IMG/VR virus record: IMGVR_UViG_2671180847_000008
Strand: one strand, 5' to 3'
DNA: 46,714 nt
Origin: a virus
Lineage: Duplodnaviria > Heunggongvirae > Uroviricota > Caudoviricetes
The position numbers were made by a program, and so were the translations under genes. Numbering within the stretch: position 1 is the first letter of the stretch; every line of letters starts with the position of its first letter. Below are positions 1,319 to 27,539 of the stretch, piece after piece. The notes beneath the pieces were generated by a model. It searched no databases, was not told the DNA's origin, and saw nothing but the letters and a program-made list of their open reading frames with translations.

Positions 1319-1861
1319 ATGATGCTTACCCTGGACGAGATAGGTCAATCAGTACGTAACAATATCCAGTTGATTATTGATCATGTCGGCTTACCTCTTG
1401 CTGTTGGTCCGCTCAGTGATGATGATTACAAGATTCTGTGTGGTGGCTATGGTGAGCTTGAATGGGACTATGCGTTAAGTACCTATGGCAACTCCAGAGA
1501 AAAGTATGAGTTCTGCATAAAACTTGTTCAGCAAGGTCGGGTTCAGGGAATACCATCAGGAGCAGCAATTTGTGTTTATGGGGTTGAAGAAAACATCTTT
1601 CGTATCCATATGATCGAAAGGTTTTCTAGAGAAGATGAATCTCACCCATTGAAAGGGCGCATGGTTTTACTCACTCTTATGAGTGCTTTTATATTTTGTA
1701 AAGCTGTTGAATGTAAAGTTGTCCACATTGTAGAGCCAGTACCAGAACTGGTGCAGTATTACGAGTCTTTTGGTTTCCGCATGGAACAGTGCGGTTATGT
1801 GATGTCGGCAGTCATTGATGAGCTGCAGGATATCTTTCTTAAATTTGCTCAGAAGGTATAG
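1319..1861 (+). CDS. Prophage cargo protein of unknown function, possibly GNAT-like acetyltransferase fold (start may be the second ATG at 1322)
   Basis: 180-aa ORF; RBS GAGAGG before tandem ATGs; perfect TATAAT at 1284-1289; AT-rich; C-terminal pattern GRMVLL...LVQYYESFGF loosely resembles GNAT motifs A/B. Confidence 0.6.
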   Translation: MMLTLDEIGQSVRNNIQLIIDHVGLPLAVGPLSDDDYKILCGGYGELEWDYALSTYGNSREKYEFCIKLVQQGRVQGIPSGAAICVYGVEENIFRIHMIERFSREDESHPLKGRMVLLTLMSAFIFCKAVECKVVHIVEPVPELVQYYESFGFRMEQCGYVMSAVIDELQDIFLKFAQKV

Positions 1862-1960
1862 ACGAGAAGGGTCTACAAATTGTAGGATACCCGTCCAGAT
1901 TACCTTAAAGGTACATCTATGGCAGTCGTTTTGTGCTTAAACTACTAAGAAACGATGTCA

Positions 1961-1981
1961 CCAATCGACATGATCGATTGG
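1961..1981. promoter_or_regulatory. Palindrome CCAATCGA-N5-TCGATTGG upstream of the 57-aa ORF; candidate operator
   Basis: Perfect 8-bp inverted arms with a 5-bp spacer, about 70 bp upstream of the ATG at 2052. Confidence 0.35.
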
Positions 1982-2051
1982 CATAAGTTAGCGAAACAAG
2001 CTAGCTTTAAAGAAAGGGTTAGAGACGCCTTTACTGTCTCGGGAGTTTTCT

Positions 2052-2225
2052 ATGAAAGATCAAAAAGCAACCAAGCCACAGGTTAAGTTCGACACAATGA
2101 AAGCATTCGCAGGTATGGGTGCTGCTGTTGAAGTTCTGATGAAGGCTGCTCCTAATGCGTTCACTCACGCTACTGTCTCTGGTAAAGAGCAGCAGGGTAA
2201 GCTTCGTCGTCGCAAAGCAGCATGA
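2052..2225 (+). CDS. Small basic protein, 57 aa, unknown function (below the ORF-track length cutoff)
   Basis: ATG with RBS GGGAG 6 nt upstream; ends just before a strong terminator; translation MKDQKATKPQVKFDTMKAFAGMGAAVEVLMKAAPNAFTHATVSGKEQQGKLRRRKAA. Confidence 0.55.
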   Translation: MKDQKATKPQVKFDTMKAFAGMGAAVEVLMKAAPNAFTHATVSGKEQQGKLRRRKAA

Positions 2226-2244
2226 TCATAGCTGGTGCTTTTTG

Positions 2245-2272
2245 AAAACCCGCCTTCAGGCGGGTTTTTTCT
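2245..2272. terminator. Bidirectional rho-independent terminator
   Basis: CCCGCC-TTCA-GGCGGG hairpin flanked by an A-tract on one side and six T on the other; lies between convergent genes. Confidence 0.8.
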
Positions 2273-2554
2273 TTAGTGATGTTCTTTGCCCTTCTGTTTG
2301 ACTGTTCTGACCTGTTCCCACTCGATACGTCCTTCTTCTCGCCTTTTGTCTATGTATTCCGCAAGATCCTGAATATTGATGCAACGTTTTGCTTTTTGTG
2401 ATGTGCCGATGCGATATGTTGGAACGGGCAACTTACAAGCGTTTGCTTTTGCTTCTGCCGTGGCTGGACTCATGCCAAAGTACTTTTGGCTAACTGCTGA
2501 GAGTTCAATGTTTGGGGTATTGAATTCAGCCATCAGTAAAAACAAGGTGTTCAT
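2273..2554 (-). CDS. Excisionase-like DNA-binding protein (PrtN/AlpA-type); start chosen at MNTLFLL
   Basis: ATG at 2554 with RBS GGAG 7 nt upstream; small basic protein; last gene of the leftward operon next to attL. Confidence 0.6.
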   Translation of the reverse strand: MNTLFLLMAEFNTPNIELSAVSQKYFGMSPATAEAKANACKLPVPTYRIGTSQKAKRCINIQDLAEYIDKRREEGRIEWEQVRTVKQKGKEHH

Positions 2555-2590
2555 AATTTTCTCCATCAAAACCGGCTGCACCCGGGAAAA

Positions 2591-3163
2591 TCATAATTCT
2601 GTGCTGGTGGCAGGAATTAATTTCTGCCAGATAGCGGAAACATATTTTGCCTGATGACGGGCATCAGCCAGGGCGTTGTGCCGTTCGCCATCGAAAGGCA
2701 TGTCCATTTTGGGGTCGAATCCGATGGAACGCCCAAGCGTAACGATCGTGCGTACATCGTGGTCATTCCAGTACGCCCACGGGCAGATTTGTCCTGCTCG
2801 CTCATAAGCTCCACGTAAAATTACGTTGTCGAAGGTGGCCCCGTTACCCCAGACTTTTAAATATTTCGTATTGTCTGCGTGCCGGTTAATGAAATGGTTT
2901 AGTTCTGAGAGAGCATCGCTGATCGACAAAGTATCATCAATACAGATTGCAGCTCGCGCTTCAGGGCTTTGTTTCAACCACCACAGGATGGTATCGCCGT
3001 CAGGTGTAGCTCCTTGCTTCATAGCACTGTCCAGGCTGACAACCGCATAAAATTCTTGTCCGATGTCTCCGGTTTCTGGAGTGAAGAACACCGCGCCAAT
3101 GGAAACGATCGGTGCATCCTTATTTTTCCCCATCGTCTCAAGGTCGATCATTAAGTTGTTCAT
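2591..3163 (-). CDS. DnaQ-like 3'-5' exonuclease
   Basis: Start MNNLMIDLETMG with RBS GGAGG; DLET and HNAL-D motifs of DEDDh exonucleases; start overlaps the upstream stop (TGATG). Confidence 0.8.
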   Translation of the reverse strand: MNNLMIDLETMGKNKDAPIVSIGAVFFTPETGDIGQEFYAVVSLDSAMKQGATPDGDTILWWLKQSPEARAAICIDDTLSISDALSELNHFINRHADNTKYLKVWGNGATFDNVILRGAYERAGQICPWAYWNDHDVRTIVTLGRSIGFDPKMDMPFDGERHNALADARHQAKYVSAIWQKLIPATSTEL

Positions 3164-3885
3164 CACTTCACCTCCTGCGGCGGTTCCGGTAGCGGCATCC
3201 AATTGATTACATCGCATTCAGGGATGCTGATATCATCACCAAGCCATCCTTGACCTTCAGACCAGCATTGCACGTAATACCCGTATTCTGTGTTCACTAC
3301 GCACCACTGCCCGTCATCCGGCATTCGCTCACTACAGCTTATCCAACTATCCGGAGTTACCGGAGAGTTGCCATTTACATCGAAGTTTGGCTCTGCGTCC
3401 TGAACCAGGAGGATGTAACCATTCTTGGCAGTATCAAGTTCTAACGCCTCGGTGACGGTGCCGAAATAGCGATTACCTAAATCAGCATCACAAGTGCTTA
3501 CATCAATGGAAACTTCCATGCCTTCGATTAATTCTGGCAAGTTGTAAGTTTGGTTTACAGGTTGGCCTCCCTGAAGCATGGCGGCGCGGTGACACCAGAT
3601 AATCCAGCCAAGCGCCATATCCCATGCCATGTATTCTCTATCACCATTTTTTGCCCTGCGGCGATCTACAGATTCCCCGAAACGCTTCTCCATAAATAAT
3701 TCATAGGCTGCCCGTTCATCCGATACTGCTGCCAGCGATGCCAGTGCAATTTTAAATGCGGTAAGTATGTTGTTAACCACACCTATTTCGAATGCTATTT
3801 CACTACATACAAACGATTTATCGTCTATTATCGACTCAATTCCGGTAATCGTGTTCTGTAACCATTCTTTGGTAAGAGTATTCAT
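3163..3885 (-). CDS. Early-left hypothetical protein with DUF551-like C-terminus
   Basis: 240-aa ORF; RBS AAGGTG; C-terminal W-rich motif DGQWCVV...WMPLPEPP. Confidence 0.7.
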   Translation of the reverse strand: MNTLTKEWLQNTITGIESIIDDKSFVCSEIAFEIGVVNNILTAFKIALASLAAVSDERAAYELFMEKRFGESVDRRRAKNGDREYMAWDMALGWIIWCHRAAMLQGGQPVNQTYNLPELIEGMEVSIDVSTCDADLGNRYFGTVTEALELDTAKNGYILLVQDAEPNFDVNGNSPVTPDSWISCSERMPDDGQWCVVNTEYGYYVQCWSEGQGWLGDDISIPECDVINWMPLPEPPQEVK

Positions 3886-3887
3886 AA

Positions 3888-4079
3888 CTATTTCACCTTA
3901 ATCTCAACATTTCGCAGCTTTAGCTCTACTGGCAGGTCTGACTTTCCGGTTAATGCTAATGCGAGATTTTCTGGAGTAATGAGAGCAGTTATTGTTTTCC
4001 CCCTCGCCAGACGAATAATCATTCGTATTTCGCGATCGTCACATGCTCCTGGTCGAACAATTGATATTTGTCCGTTCAC
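3888..4079 (-). CDS. Small hypothetical protein (63 aa)
   Basis: GTG start with RBS AAGGAG 7 nt upstream; tightly packed in the operon. Confidence 0.5.
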   Translation of the reverse strand: MNGQISIVRPGACDDREIRMIIRLARGKTITALITPENLALALTGKSDLPVELKLRNVEIKVK

Positions 4080-23172: not shown

Positions 23173-23381
23173 ATCAGAATGATATTGAAGCCATGATTCA
23201 GCGTTATACGGAAGCTGAAATGGCGGTGCTGGACGGAAAATCCGTCACTTTTAATGGTCAGCAGATGACCATGGAAAACTTATCTGAGATCCGGCAGGGG
23301 CGGCAGGAGTGGGAGCGCCGCCTTGCGGCTCTGATTACACGACGACGGGGGCATCCCGGGTACCGGCTGGCGAGGTTCTGA
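23169..23381 (+). CDS. Head-tail joining protein (gpW-like)
   Basis: About 70 aa; C-terminal RRRGHPGY resembles lambda W RRRGPAGF; RBS GGAGG. Confidence 0.7.
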   Translation: MNQNDIEAMIQRYTEAEMAVLDGKSVTFNGQQMTMENLSEIRQGRQEWERRLAALITRRRGHPGYRLARF

Positions 23382-24889
23382 TGGCAATTCTTGATGATGT
23401 GATTGGCGTTTTTTCACCAGGATGGAAAGCGGCAAGGCTGCGTTCCCGTGCGGTGATCCAGGCTTATGAGGCCGTAAAAACGACGCGGACACACAAAGCC
23501 CGGCGGGAAAACCGAACTGCCGACCAGTTAAGCCAGTACGGGGCCGTGTCGTTACGTGAGCAGGCCCGTTACCTTGATAACAACCACGATCTGGTTATTG
23601 GTGTATTTGACAAGCTGGAAGAACGGGTGGTGGGGAAAAACGGGATTATTGTCGAGCCACATCCGGTATTACGCAATGGGGCCATTGCCCGTGACCTGGC
23701 TGCGGAGATTCGCACCCGATGGAGTGAATGGTCTGTCAGCCCGGAAGTCACCGGGCAGTTTACCCGTCCGATGCTGGAACGTCTGATGCTGCGTACCTGG
23801 CTGCGCGATGGTGAGGTGTTTGCCCAGATGGTTTCCGGGCGCATAAACAGCCTGGCGCCTTCTGCCGGTGTTCATTTCTGGCTGGAGGCGCTCGAGCCGG
23901 ACTTTATTCCCATGACCAGTGATGAGAGCAACAGGCTGAATCAGGGCGTGTTTGTTGATGACTGGGGGCGTCCCGAAAAATATCTGGTGTATAAAAGCCG
24001 TCCCGTATCCGGACGGCAGATGGAAACCAAAGAAGTGGATGCAGAGCGAATGCTGCATCTTAAATTTGTTCGCCGTCTGCACCAGATGCGCGGGACGTCT
24101 TTATTGTCCGGTGTGCTGATCCGCCTCAGTGCCCTGAAAGAATATGAAGATTCTGAGCTGACTGCAGCAAGGATCGCCGCTGCTCTGGGGATGTACATCC
24201 GCAAAGGCGACGGACAGAGCTATGAACCGGATGGTAATGGCAGAAAGGAGAATGAACGTGAGCTTACCATTCAGCCAGGCATTATTTACGACGATCTGAA
24301 ACCCGGCGAAGAAATCGGAATGGTGAAGTCGGATCGCCCCAATCCTAATCTTGAAACTTTTCGTAATGGTCAGTTGCGTGCCGTGGCGGCGGGCAGTCGT
24401 CTGAGTTTTTCCAGTACGGCACGCAACTATAACGGCACTTACAGCGCCCAGCGTCAGGAACTGGTTGAGTCTACTGATGGCTACCTGATCCTGCAGGACT
24501 GGTTTATTGGTGCCGTCACCCGCCCGATGTATCGTGCCTGGCTGAAACAGGCTGTGGCATCCGGTGTTATCAGGCTACCCCGCGATCTTGACCGTTCTTC
24601 ACTGTATACCGCGGTGTATTCCGGACCGGTGATGCCGTGGATTGACCCTGTTAAGGAGGCTGAGGCCTGGAAAATCCAGATTCGTGGTGGAGCGGCGACA
24701 GAATCAGACTGGGTACGTGCTGGTGGTCGTAATCCGGATGATGTCAAACGTCGGCGCAAGGCCGAAATTGATGAAAACCGCAAGCTGGATCTGGTATTTG
24801 ATACCGATCCAGCCAGTGATAAAGGAGGCAGCAGTGCCGCAACGAAACGACAGGATCCGCAGCACACCGACGACCAGTCCGAAGAATAA
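23381..24889 (+). CDS. Portal protein
   Basis: About 500 aa, between W and the capsid gene; TGATG overlap with W. Confidence 0.85.
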   Translation: MAILDDVIGVFSPGWKAARLRSRAVIQAYEAVKTTRTHKARRENRTADQLSQYGAVSLREQARYLDNNHDLVIGVFDKLEERVVGKNGIIVEPHPVLRNGAIARDLAAEIRTRWSEWSVSPEVTGQFTRPMLERLMLRTWLRDGEVFAQMVSGRINSLAPSAGVHFWLEALEPDFIPMTSDESNRLNQGVFVDDWGRPEKYLVYKSRPVSGRQMETKEVDAERMLHLKFVRRLHQMRGTSLLSGVLIRLSALKEYEDSELTAARIAAALGMYIRKGDGQSYEPDGNGRKENERELTIQPGIIYDDLKPGEEIGMVKSDRPNPNLETFRNGQLRAVAAGSRLSFSSTARNYNGTYSAQRQELVESTDGYLILQDWFIGAVTRPMYRAWLKQAVASGVIRLPRDLDRSSLYTAVYSGPVMPWIDPVKEAEAWKIQIRGGAATESDWVRAGGRNPDDVKRRRKAEIDENRKLDLVFDTDPASDKGGSSAATKRQDPQHTDDQSEE

Positions 24890-24902
24890 TTCCTGGTTCA
24901 GG

Positions 24903-26861
24903 ATGCAGGCTGGTCACCAGAGTGACGCGGATATTTATATTTATGACGAGATTGGTTTCTGGGGTGTTACAGCGAAGCAGTTTATCAGTGATCTGAATGC
25001 ACTGGGCGATATCACCCACATTAATCTCCATATTAATTCACCGGGTGGCGATGTCTTTGAAGGCATCGCCATTTTTAATGCGCTGAAAACACATGGTGCG
25101 TCCATTACCGTTTATGTCGACGGTGTGGCGGCGTCAATGGCGTCGGTCATTGCGATGGTGGGAAACCCGGTCATTATGCCGGAAAACACCTTCATGATGA
25201 TTCATAAACCATTTGGCTTTACGGGCGGTGATGCGGAGGACATGCGCACCTATGCCGACCTGCTCGATAAGGTTGAGGCGGTTCTGTTACCCGCTTATGC
25301 ACAGAAAACCGGGAAAACCACCGATGAAATTGCTGCCATGCTGGCGGATGAGACCTGGATGTCAGGTGCCGAATGTCTGGAACATGGATTTGCTGATCAG
25401 GTAACGCCAGCCGTTAAGGCAATGGCATGTATTCAGTCAAAACGTACAGAGGAATTTAAAAAGATGCCGGAATCCATTCGAAACATGATTACTCCGCCAC
25501 GCAACAGTGCTCCACGCGTACAGGATGATGAACCTGCTGCCTCCCGGACGCCAGTGCAGGCAGCAGCACCCGTGGTGGATGAAAACAGTATCCGTGCGCA
25601 GGTACTGGCAGAGCAAAAAGCGCGTGTAAACGGTATTAATGATCTGTTTGCCATGTTTGGCGGGCGTTATCAGACGCTGCAGGCTCAGTGTCTTGCCGAT
25701 CCTGAATGTTCGCTGGAGCAGGCCCGCGAAAAGCTGTTGAACGAGATGGGGCGCGAGTCCACGCCATCCAATAAAAATACCCCGGCTCATATTTATGCCG
25801 GTAACGGTAATTTTGTGGGGGACGGGATCCGCCAGGCGCTGATGGCGCGTGCCGGATTTGAAAAACCCGAACGTGATAATGTCTACAACGGGATGACCCT
25901 GCGTGAATATGCCCGTATGTCACTGACTGAACGGGGTATTGGGGTTTCCGGTTATAACCCGATGCAGATGGTCGGTGCGGCGTTCACACACAGTACGTCT
26001 GACTTCGGTAATATTCTGCTGGATGTTGCGAACAAAGCCATTCTGCAGGGCTGGGAAGATGCCCCTGAAACCTATGAACAGTGGACGCGGAAAGGTCAGT
26101 TGTCTGATTTTAAAATTGCCCATCGTGTGGGTATGGGGGGCTTCAGTGCTCTGCGTCAGGTGCGTGAAGGGGCGGAATATAAATACGTCACCACCGGAGA
26201 TAAACAGGCCACTATTGCACTGGCGACCTATGGCGAGCTGTTCAGTATCACCCGTCAGGCCATTATCAATGATGATCTGAATATGCTGACCGATGTCCCG
26301 ATGAAACTGGGCCGTGCGGCGAAATCCACTATTGCCGATCTGGTTTATGCCATTCTGACGTCTAACCCGAAAATCTCCACAGATAATGTAAGTCTGTTCG
26401 ATAAAGCGAAACATGCAAACGTACTGGAGAGCGCTGCAATGGACGTGGCATCGCTGGATAAAGCCCGCCAGTTGATGCGCGTTCAGAAAGAGGGGGAGCG
26501 TCATCTGAATATTCGTCCTGCGTTCGTACTGGTACCGACGGCGATGGAGTCTGTTGCTAACCAGGTCATTCGCTCCTCAAGTGTCAAGGGGGCTGACATT
26601 AACGCCGGTATTATTAACCCGGTGAAAGATTTTGCGACCGTTATTGCAGAGCCTCGTCTTGATGATAACAGCCAGACCACTTTCTACCTGGCTGCGTCCA
26701 AAGGCTCCGATACGATTGAAGTGGCTTATCTCAACGGTGTGGATACGCCATATATTGATCAGATGGAGGGCTTCAGTGTGGATGGCGTGACAACGAAAGT
26801 GCGTATTGACGCCGGTGTCGCGCCAGTTGATCACCGCGGTCTGGTGAAATGTACGGCGTAA
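24903..26861 (+). CDS. Prohead protease (ClpP/S49-like) - scaffold - major capsid protein fusion
   Basis: N-terminal serine-protease region (INSPGGDVFEGIAIFNAL, VAASMASVIAMVG); central coiled-coil; large C-terminal capsid-sized domain; single 652-aa ORF. Confidence 0.8.
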   Translation: MQAGHQSDADIYIYDEIGFWGVTAKQFISDLNALGDITHINLHINSPGGDVFEGIAIFNALKTHGASITVYVDGVAASMASVIAMVGNPVIMPENTFMMIHKPFGFTGGDAEDMRTYADLLDKVEAVLLPAYAQKTGKTTDEIAAMLADETWMSGAECLEHGFADQVTPAVKAMACIQSKRTEEFKKMPESIRNMITPPRNSAPRVQDDEPAASRTPVQAAAPVVDENSIRAQVLAEQKARVNGINDLFAMFGGRYQTLQAQCLADPECSLEQAREKLLNEMGRESTPSNKNTPAHIYAGNGNFVGDGIRQALMARAGFEKPERDNVYNGMTLREYARMSLTERGIGVSGYNPMQMVGAAFTHSTSDFGNILLDVANKAILQGWEDAPETYEQWTRKGQLSDFKIAHRVGMGGFSALRQVREGAEYKYVTTGDKQATIALATYGELFSITRQAIINDDLNMLTDVPMKLGRAAKSTIADLVYAILTSNPKISTDNVSLFDKAKHANVLESAAMDVASLDKARQLMRVQKEGERHLNIRPAFVLVPTAMESVANQVIRSSSVKGADINAGIINPVKDFATVIAEPRLDDNSQTTFYLAASKGSDTIEVAYLNGVDTPYIDQMEGFSVDGVTTKVRIDAGVAPVDHRGLVKCTA

Positions 26862-26947
26862 ACGTCGCAGACAACAATTCTGATGGCCCGTAAGGGCTTT
26901 TTTTGTACCTGAAATCAGCCCCTGAACGGGGCTGTGCGGAGACAGTT

Positions 26948-27271
26948 ATGGCAAAGAATTTTGTAGAAGAAGGAAAAACGGTGGCGATTATTGCCAGTGC
27001 AGCCATCAGCAGCGGAGATCTGGTGCAGGTGGGCGATGTTTTTGCGGTGGCGCTGACCGATATTCCACAGGGTGAAACAGGCGACGGCATGACCGAAGGT
27101 GTGTTTATGCTGCCTAAGCTGAAAACGGATGACATGAAAACGGGTAAGAAGGTTTATCTGAAGTCCGGAAAAGTTCAGCTGACTAACAGCGGCTCTGATC
27201 CGCTGGTCGGGGTTGTCTGGGCAGATGCCGGAACCAGTGCAGAAGAAGTGCCGGTAAAACTCAATGTCTGA
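26948..27271 (+). CDS. Small head-associated protein (possible decoration/FI-position protein)
   Basis: 107 aa immediately after the capsid gene; RBS GGAG. Confidence 0.5.
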   Translation: MAKNFVEEGKTVAIIASAAISSGDLVQVGDVFAVALTDIPQGETGDGMTEGVFMLPKLKTDDMKTGKKVYLKSGKVQLTNSGSDPLVGVVWADAGTSAEEVPVKLNV

Positions 27272-27539
27272 TCCCTTTTCCCGGCTGGCAGCGCGTATGG
27301 ATGCGATCACGGTCAGAAAGATGGGAAAGACAGCCTCGATTAATGATGTCGATATGACTGTGATCCCGGGAGAAACACTGGCAGAGCTGAATGCTCTGTC
27401 CGGACCTGCGGTCTCTCTGGTGGTGTTTTCTTCGGGATACCGCCCACGGCGCGGGGATCGCGTTGTTTATGACGGACAACAATGGACGGTCACACGGCAT
27501 GAACGCTTTAACGGTAAGCCAATGATCTTTATTGAGTAA
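27264..27539 (+). CDS. Head-tail connector (FII-position protein)
   Basis: 91 aa; position before Z/U/V; RRGDRVVYDGQQW motif. Confidence 0.55.
   Translation: MSDPFSRLAARMDAITVRKMGKTASINDVDMTVIPGETLAELNALSGPAVSLVVFSSGYRPRRGDRVVYDGQQWTVTRHERFNGKPMIFIE

Follow-up and report, generated by a model that had tools for sequence, protein, structure and literature searches.

The window analysed here is the whole of a 46,714-nucleotide stretch of viral DNA (Caudoviricetes; IMG/VR record IMGVR_UViG_2671180847_000008), and its plus strand carries, ending at position 26861, a single gene that encodes a ClpP-like protease, a scaffold-like middle segment and a major capsid protein as one chain. The identity of this gene as a ClpP-like prohead protease/major capsid protein fusion is close to certain. 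As an explanation of the gene as a whole, it is reasonably probable that it is the head-shell gene of a lambdoid Escherichia coli prophage of the mEp460/cdtI/Tritos type, that it belongs to a curated family of fusions, and that it includes a second translation start nested within the frame.

Protease, scaffold-like segment and capsid domain in one frame

The features of the gene are given below, with positions counted along the window and residues numbered on a product of 675 residues, a numbering that is kept throughout unless another is named.

24834-26861, plus strand: full fusion gene, consisting of ClpP-like prohead protease, linker/scaffold-like segment and major capsid protein, with a GTG start and its stop codon at 26859-26861.
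24822-24828, plus strand: Shine-Dalgarno sequence AAGGAGG, read from the sequence, 5 nucleotides before GTG 24834.
24969-25406, plus strand: ClpP-family (S14) serine protease domain, residues 46-191, matched by Pfam CLP_protease.
25134-25136, 25203-25205 and 25395-25397, plus strand: codons of the predicted catalytic residues Ser101, His124 and Asp188, respectively.
25467-25580, plus strand: variable linker rich in Pro, Ala and Gln, residues 212-249, delimited by alignment, conservation profile and composition.
25581-25943, plus strand: middle segment, residues 250-370, conserved among homologues and common to fusions with an S78 protease and to gp39 of phage Epona.
25962-26849, plus strand: major capsid protein domain, Mu gpT-like, residues 377-672, matched by Pfam Phage_capsid_4 and Mu-like_gpT.

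The original prediction, made from the letters and a list of open reading frames, described a 652-residue open reading frame at 24903-26861. Translated on the plus strand, that interval reads through 652 codons before it meets a stop, and the frame remains open as far back as 24633, a length that is not due to chance. The uninterrupted frame and its end at 26861 thus stand as described, but the start most probably lies 23 codons upstream of ATG 24903, at GTG 24834, and yields a product of 675 residues and 73.6 kDa. The start was moved because of the Shine-Dalgarno sequence, its conservation in relatives, the conservation of the upstream residues and the annotation of a 675-residue form in RefSeq. 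The AAGGAGG before GTG 24834 pairs with the anti-Shine-Dalgarno sequence at −11.6 kcal/mol, and inspection of the sequence upstream of ATG 24903 revealed no Shine-Dalgarno sequence. The arrangement AAGGAGG-N5-GTG is kept in mEp213 and ASU11, whose proteins are only 73-77% identical to the present one, and the motif is also kept in Tritos. When homologues are aligned, conserved residues (NSW[FY]) begin upstream of ATG 24903, and the column of this ATG is occupied by Ile or another residue, with no Met, in Gifsy-2, Fels-1 and MD8. The RefSeq annotation of 675 residues belongs to an E. coli chromosomal copy that is 99.9% identical. Public records give the gene differing starts, with products of 652 to 707 residues.

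Judged from profiles and motif alignments, the N-terminal part is a ClpP-type serine protease whose Ser-His-Asp triad is intact. Pfam CLP_protease matches it with an E-value of 1.7e-36 (residues 23-168 in the 652-residue numbering), and NF045542 Clp_rel_HeadMat ('head maturation protease, ClpP-related') scores 217 bits (216.9) against a cutoff of 120, so that a domain originally put forward as ClpP/S49-like is assigned by profile search to the ClpP type. The sequences AASM, MIHKP and GFAD align to the Ser, His and Asp motifs of solved ClpP chains, and Ser101, His124 and Asp188 are unchanged across nine homologues.

The capsid-sized C-terminal domain of the prediction is also borne out. Pfam Phage_capsid_4 matches residues 354-649 (652-residue numbering) with an E-value of 4.5e-55, Mu-like_gpT gives a partial match with an E-value of 3.7e-08, and a profile of the C-terminal two-thirds of the protein matches the solved 'Mu GpT domain' capsid chains 8rkc and 8rkx with an E-value of 1.2e-13; in hhalign, the probability of the match to Mu gpT is 96%. 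The domain is presumed from these matches to adopt the HK97 fold. Since the Pfam capsid model starts near residue 377, and residues 309-326 comprise a variable linker and, after it, an invariant N-G-N motif, the N-terminus of the mature capsid protein is expected between about residues 310 and 377, which would give a protein of about 33-40 kDa.

Between these two domains, the linker at residues 212-249 differs among homologues in both length and sequence, and identity falls to 0.25 over residues 226-250. The conserved middle segment that follows it (residues 250-370) matched no Pfam family in a scan of the product. By its position, and by the literature on Gifsy-2 and MD8, it is presumed to be a scaffold or delta-like region that would be removed at maturation. 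The prediction had placed a coiled coil here, but a heptad scan gave no convincing coiled coil, as hydrophobic residues took up more than half of the a/d positions in none of the 28-residue windows; the scan was a crude one, not a dedicated predictor, and does not prove absence. An AlphaFold2 model of the single 675-residue sequence was discarded as unusable (predicted local distance difference test score 39.5; predicted template modelling score 0.25).

The gene belongs to an already known, NCBI-curated family, NF045540, with a studied prototype, the 'tripartite capsid gene' of Gifsy-2. NF045540 scaf_prot_MCP1 ('ClpP-like prohead protease/major capsid protein fusion protein') scores 986 bits (986.2) against a cutoff of 475 and aligns profile positions 2-651 of 652 with residues 9-651 of the 652-residue form, and PHROG 133 matches the protein from end to end. 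The sister family of fusions with an S78 protease, NF045541 scaf_prot_MCP2, was considered and rejected, as its score of 403 bits lies below the cutoff of 525, the match covers only the scaffold and capsid parts (residues 197-649 in the 652-residue numbering), and the protease is of the ClpP type and not Peptidase_S78. The Pfam and NF045540 profiles thereby confirm that protease, middle segment and capsid occupy one frame where lambda has C, nu3 and E, and the remark that such fusions occur in enterobacterial prophages agrees with the curated family and with Gifsy-2 as a relative.

The gene is present in 2125 of 5426 complete E. coli genomes (approximately 39%), and among the E. coli matches listed, all those that cover most of the gene are annotated as the fusion protein. 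In tblastn searches of phage records, identity is 98.7-99.3% in mEp460, cdtI, Tritos, Ayreon and phi458, 73-77% in Shiga toxin (Stx)-converting phages, mEp213 and LLS, 69.5% over 97% of the length in Gifsy-2, and 56% in the Pseudomonas MD8/F10 group. Representative bacterial genomes contribute 80 loci from Enterobacterales, Pasteurellaceae, Shewanella, Pseudomonas and others, with identities of 52-99%. As a flagged item the gene therefore matters little, being a routine and very common prophage head gene.

The names under which it is deposited are of more practical consequence. Phage records call it 'head-tail preconnector protease C', 'Nu3', 'terminase protein', 'ATP-dependent Clp protease', 'putative protease/scaffold protein' or 'Major Capsid Protein'. 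With such misleading names and inconsistent starts, automated pipelines often miss it as a capsid gene, and searches for capsid genes by product name will overlook it. In VT1-Sakai (AP000400.1), the homologous fusion gene is cut in two by an IS629 insertion, leaving fragments that the record labels 'scaffolding protein' and hypothetical proteins. Contigs of three metagenome-assembled genomes labelled 'Bacillota bacterium' (L021), 'Proteobacteria bacterium' from soil (L023) and 'Geobacteraceae bacterium' (L025) carry the gene at 99%, 99% and 73% identity, respectively; these contigs look mis-binned or contaminating rather than indicative of true host range.

The protease-scaffold junction and a candidate internal start

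Where the protease ends and the linker begins, the gene contains a possible second site of translation initiation, made up of two elements.

25464-25466, plus strand: in-frame ATG encoding Met211, followed by Pro212, about 15 residues past the end of the ClpP fold; candidate internal start.
25450-25453, plus strand: internal Shine-Dalgarno-like AGGA within codons 206-207 (GAG GAA), 10 nucleotides before ATG 25464.

Initiation at ATG 25464 would yield a scaffold-capsid product of 465 residues and 50.7 kDa. The Met211-Pro212 pair is unchanged in all 80 loci, which come from diverse Gammaproteobacteria, while the flanking residues vary. The codons preceding it were counted over 52 distinct (non-redundant) sequence contexts from homologous loci. 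At codon −5 before the junction ATG, GAG (31 contexts), AAG (11) and CAG (5) together account for 47 of the 52, and GAA, AAA and CAA do not occur; NAG makes up 0.448 of the Glu, Lys and Gln codons in the same genes (n = 4812), compared with 47 of 47 at this codon. The five other contexts have GGAG or GAGGA displaced by one codon. Codon −4 reads GAN throughout, any of the four bases occurring in its third position, and nearby synonymous sites vary freely. Because the nucleotides at codon −5 are kept while the charge of the encoded residue changes among Glu, Lys and Gln, selection appears to act on the RNA. A scan along the whole gene shows that only the junction column holds pairing to the anti-Shine-Dalgarno sequence of −5.5 kcal/mol or better in 52 of 52 contexts, and that it is the only column with such conserved pairing that also has a start codon in all 52. 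When the in-frame ATGs of 13 reference homologues are ordered by Shine-Dalgarno strength, the junction ATG comes first, second or third. Taken together, these comparisons make a nested start at ATG 25464, giving a scaffold-capsid product, moderately probable.

The same design recurs with a different protease. Homologous scaffold-like and capsid parts are also fused to an S78 protease in Rhodobacter RcKvothe, Shewanella 1/44, Bordetella PY223 and Stenotrophomonas S1, and these four fusions appear to belong to NF045541 ('prohead protease/major capsid protein fusion protein'). In a set of 74 S78-type loci from viral contigs with a frame of at least 600 residues, the junction Met is present in every one, the median pairing energy of the Shine-Dalgarno sequence at the junction is −7.7 kcal/mol, and 70 of the 74 reach −5 kcal/mol or better, with many junctions reading AAGGAGG-N5-ATG. 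Tiled control windows elsewhere in these genes have medians of −1.7 to −4.2 kcal/mol, and only 3 to 22 of the 74 loci reach −5 kcal/mol in them. In six IMG/VR contigs (L102, L103, L107, L111, L114 and L116), AAGGAGG or a similar sequence stands 5-6 nucleotides before the junction ATG, near locus positions 935-1022; these signals match a normal gene start in strength, and only a missing stop codon merges the two cistrons.

In Faecalibacterium phage Epona, protease and scaffold-capsid protein are encoded as two separate genes.

Epona (L008, FP_Epona), locus positions 1819-3955: gp38, 176 residues, Peptidase_S78, and gp39, 530 residues, Phage_capsid_4.

The names of these two products look swapped, as the record gives gp38 the name 'major head and protease protein' and gp39 that of 'head maturation protease'. 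As the unit of scaffold-like segment and capsid domain recurs both with an S78 protease and as a separate gene, it is, on these sequence comparisons, the conserved core to the front of which two unrelated proteases have been joined.

No description of an internal start in protease-capsid fusions was found in the literature that could be searched, though the Gifsy-2 study may have discussed one, and a search for N-terminal sequencing of such fusion proteins returned nothing relevant. A preprint on the prohead protease in the cyclic oligonucleotide-based antiphage signalling system (CBASS) was set aside, as it concerns the protease-scaffold proteins of T1-like phages and not the present fusion.

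Head module, assembly and competing explanations

The surrounding genes form a complete head module of the standard lambda-like kind, in the order DUF1441 small terminase, gpA-type large terminase, gpW-like adaptor, lambda-family portal and fusion gene, followed downstream by a Phage_cement_2 decoration protein, a PF13856 protein, gpZ, gpU and gpV.

23381-24889, plus strand: lambda-family portal gene (Pfam Phage_portal_2, E-value 7.6e-82; RefSeq annotation of a near-identical copy).
26885-26905, plus strand: putative terminator-like hairpin, GGCCCGTAAGGGC, followed by a T run, from a consensus scan and the sequence.
26948-27271, plus strand: head decoration (cement) protein gene (Pfam Phage_cement_2, E-value 1.1e-20; PHROG 122 'head decoration', E-value 2e-47).

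From the portal to the tail genes there is no protease, scaffold or capsid gene apart from the fusion gene, which, by the gene order of the window and of annotated relatives, is the sole capsid gene and stands between the portal and the small decoration gene. The end of the portal gene overlaps the start of the fusion gene by 56 nucleotides, with GTG 24834 and its Shine-Dalgarno sequence falling within the last 68 nucleotides of the portal gene. A similar overlap is annotated in Gifsy-2, MD8, mEp213 and Tritos, and its recurrence suggests translational coupling of the portal and capsid genes. The hairpin GGCCCGTAAGGGC falls between the stop codon of the fusion gene and the decoration gene; a rho-independent terminator is annotated at the same relative place in the mEp213 record, and a putative terminator follows the capsid gene in the HK97 record. 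The hairpin might reduce downstream expression relative to the capsid gene. The 91-residue protein encoded at 27264-27539 is matched by Pfam PF13856 'Gifsy-2', described as 'ATP-binding sugar transporter from pro-phage', and by PHROG 153, a minor tail protein; its position suggests a head-tail joining protein, and the PF13856 description looks like a misnomer.

By analogy with the family, with HK97, lambda and Gifsy-2, the capsid domains would come together on the portal to form a T=7 procapsid that encloses the N-terminal parts of the chains. The protease, as expected from the family, would then cut off both itself and the scaffold-like part to leave the mature capsid protein, after which DNA packaging would expand the shell and trimers of the cement protein would stabilise and decorate it. 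Initiation at ATG 25464 would add to this scheme a 50.7 kDa scaffold-capsid chain free of protease, comparable to HK97 gp5. Most subunits would be supplied from the internal start, and the long chain would serve mainly to carry the protease into the procapsid, as in the C:Nu3 pair of lambda and the I:Z pair of Mu. Such a nested pair, in which the internal start makes the main building block and a minor full-length chain delivers the protease by co-assembly, is somewhat favoured by the sequence comparisons, and it may be general across ClpP- and S78-type families, because the same junction design occurs with two unrelated proteases. If true, the internal start would explain how such phages set the ratio of protease to capsid protein, and it would represent a third way for a maturation protease to enter the procapsid, namely while covalently linked to a capsid subunit.

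Several points weigh against this interpretation. The internal AGGA is of only moderate strength, at −6.0 kcal/mol compared with −11.6 kcal/mol for the upstream start, and Shine-Dalgarno-like motifs arise elsewhere in the gene through amino-acid constraint alone, one of them close to the SPGGD motif. Given the phylogenetic relatedness of the 80 loci, the codon counts do not amount to independent trials, and the invariance of Met-Pro could reflect a structural or cleavage role. Concerning the building block itself, when a profile of the scaffold and capsid parts was compared by hhalign, the middle segment did not significantly resemble lambda Nu3, Mu Z or the delta domain of HK97 (probabilities of 0.9% against lambda C/Nu3 and 0.2% against Mu I/Z), and analogy is the basis for presuming both its scaffold function and the cleavage sites.

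The strongest competing explanation is that the gene has a single product, with every subunit made as the full 74 kDa chain and approximately 415 copies processing themselves, and that Met-Pro and AGGA are a protein-level feature or incidental. Annotations, NCBIfam and the literature cited present the gene in this way, and the much stronger Shine-Dalgarno sequence of the upstream start and the occurrence of similar motifs by amino-acid constraint speak in its favour. However, a single product leaves unexplained why codon −5 is always NAG despite the switching among Glu, Lys and Gln, and why the independent S78-type fusions carry a canonical AAGGAGG-N5-ATG at the same junction. By a rough estimate from assumed procapsid dimensions, moreover, 415 copies of a cargo of about 40 kDa would fill roughly half or more of the T=7 cavity. 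Such a cargo load is approximately twice that of P22 or HK97. The single-product explanation is accordingly regarded as possible, if rather doubtful.

It is very improbable that the gene is an intact-looking relic, in a defective prophage, that has lost its expression or function. Cryptic prophages are indeed numerous in E. coli, but the frame and the catalytic residues are intact, the head module is complete, and the gene is approximately 99% identical to those of phages with records of their own (mEp460, cdtI, Tritos, Ayreon and phi458). That separate genes were merged artificially in sequencing or assembly, or recently by a frameshift or the loss of a stop, has next to no probability; nothing was found in its favour, and the population evidence refutes it for practical purposes, as 1974 E. 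coli records (coverage of at least 80%), 77 phage records and the 80 loci, across many genera, all have this frame uninterrupted.

Comparison with known phage systems

Gifsy-2, the prototype of the family, has been described as having its protease and coat genes fused (PMC12315714, citing Effantin et al. 2010, Virology 402:355) and is listed among phages whose decoration protein is trimeric and sits at the three-fold axes (PMC8538268, citing the same study); gp5 of Pseudomonas phage MD8 has likewise been read as three parts (PMC8508860). The Gifsy-2 gene (STM1034.3n, NC_010393) resembles the window gene in architecture, in its Pfam domains, in the portal upstream, in a downstream cement-homologous protein of about 108 residues followed by gpZ, gpU and gpV, and in a Met-Pro preceded by GAGGAG. 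It differs by approximately 30% divergence, a longer linker, another N-terminal extension and the lack of the AAGGAGG-GTG start. The studies of capsid structure and maturation concern Gifsy-2 and not the window phage. The Gifsy-2 chain reportedly comprises a ClpP-like N-terminus, a central domain, about 200 residues long, that possibly serves as scaffold, and a C-terminal capsid protein, and the models of its T=7 capsids are said to have used the capsid protein of HK97 together with gpD of lambda.

The gene is essentially the same in mEp460, cdtI, Tritos and Ayreon, and nothing of substance differs. MD8 gp5, read by its authors as the same three parts, is 56% identical and belongs to a phage of another host clade, and its junction reads QEF where the present one reads EEF, with the AGGA motif retained. 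The S78-type fusions share with the window gene their homologous scaffold-like and capsid parts, their place after the portal and a junction Met with a Shine-Dalgarno sequence, but have an HK97-like Peptidase_S78 N-terminus instead of ClpP.

A profile of the window protein gave no significant hhalign match to HK97 gp5 or to Mu I/Z. In HK97, a scaffold-like part likewise stands covalently ahead of the capsid domain of gp5, but the protease is a separate S78 gene (gp4). Lambda is similar in the portal, terminase and tail genes that surround the fusion gene and in joining a serine protease of the ClpP/SppA clan to a scaffold, but its capsid gene E is separate and its C protein is annotated as S49; the window decoration protein is of the Phage_cement_2 type. 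Lambda C/nu3 and Mu I/Z are both annotated as nested in-frame pairs, with Nu3 made from an in-frame start inside C, an arrangement that serves as model for the nested start proposed here. The window capsid domain is related to Mu gpT, and the nesting of Z within I is the Mu parallel to the proposed nested start.

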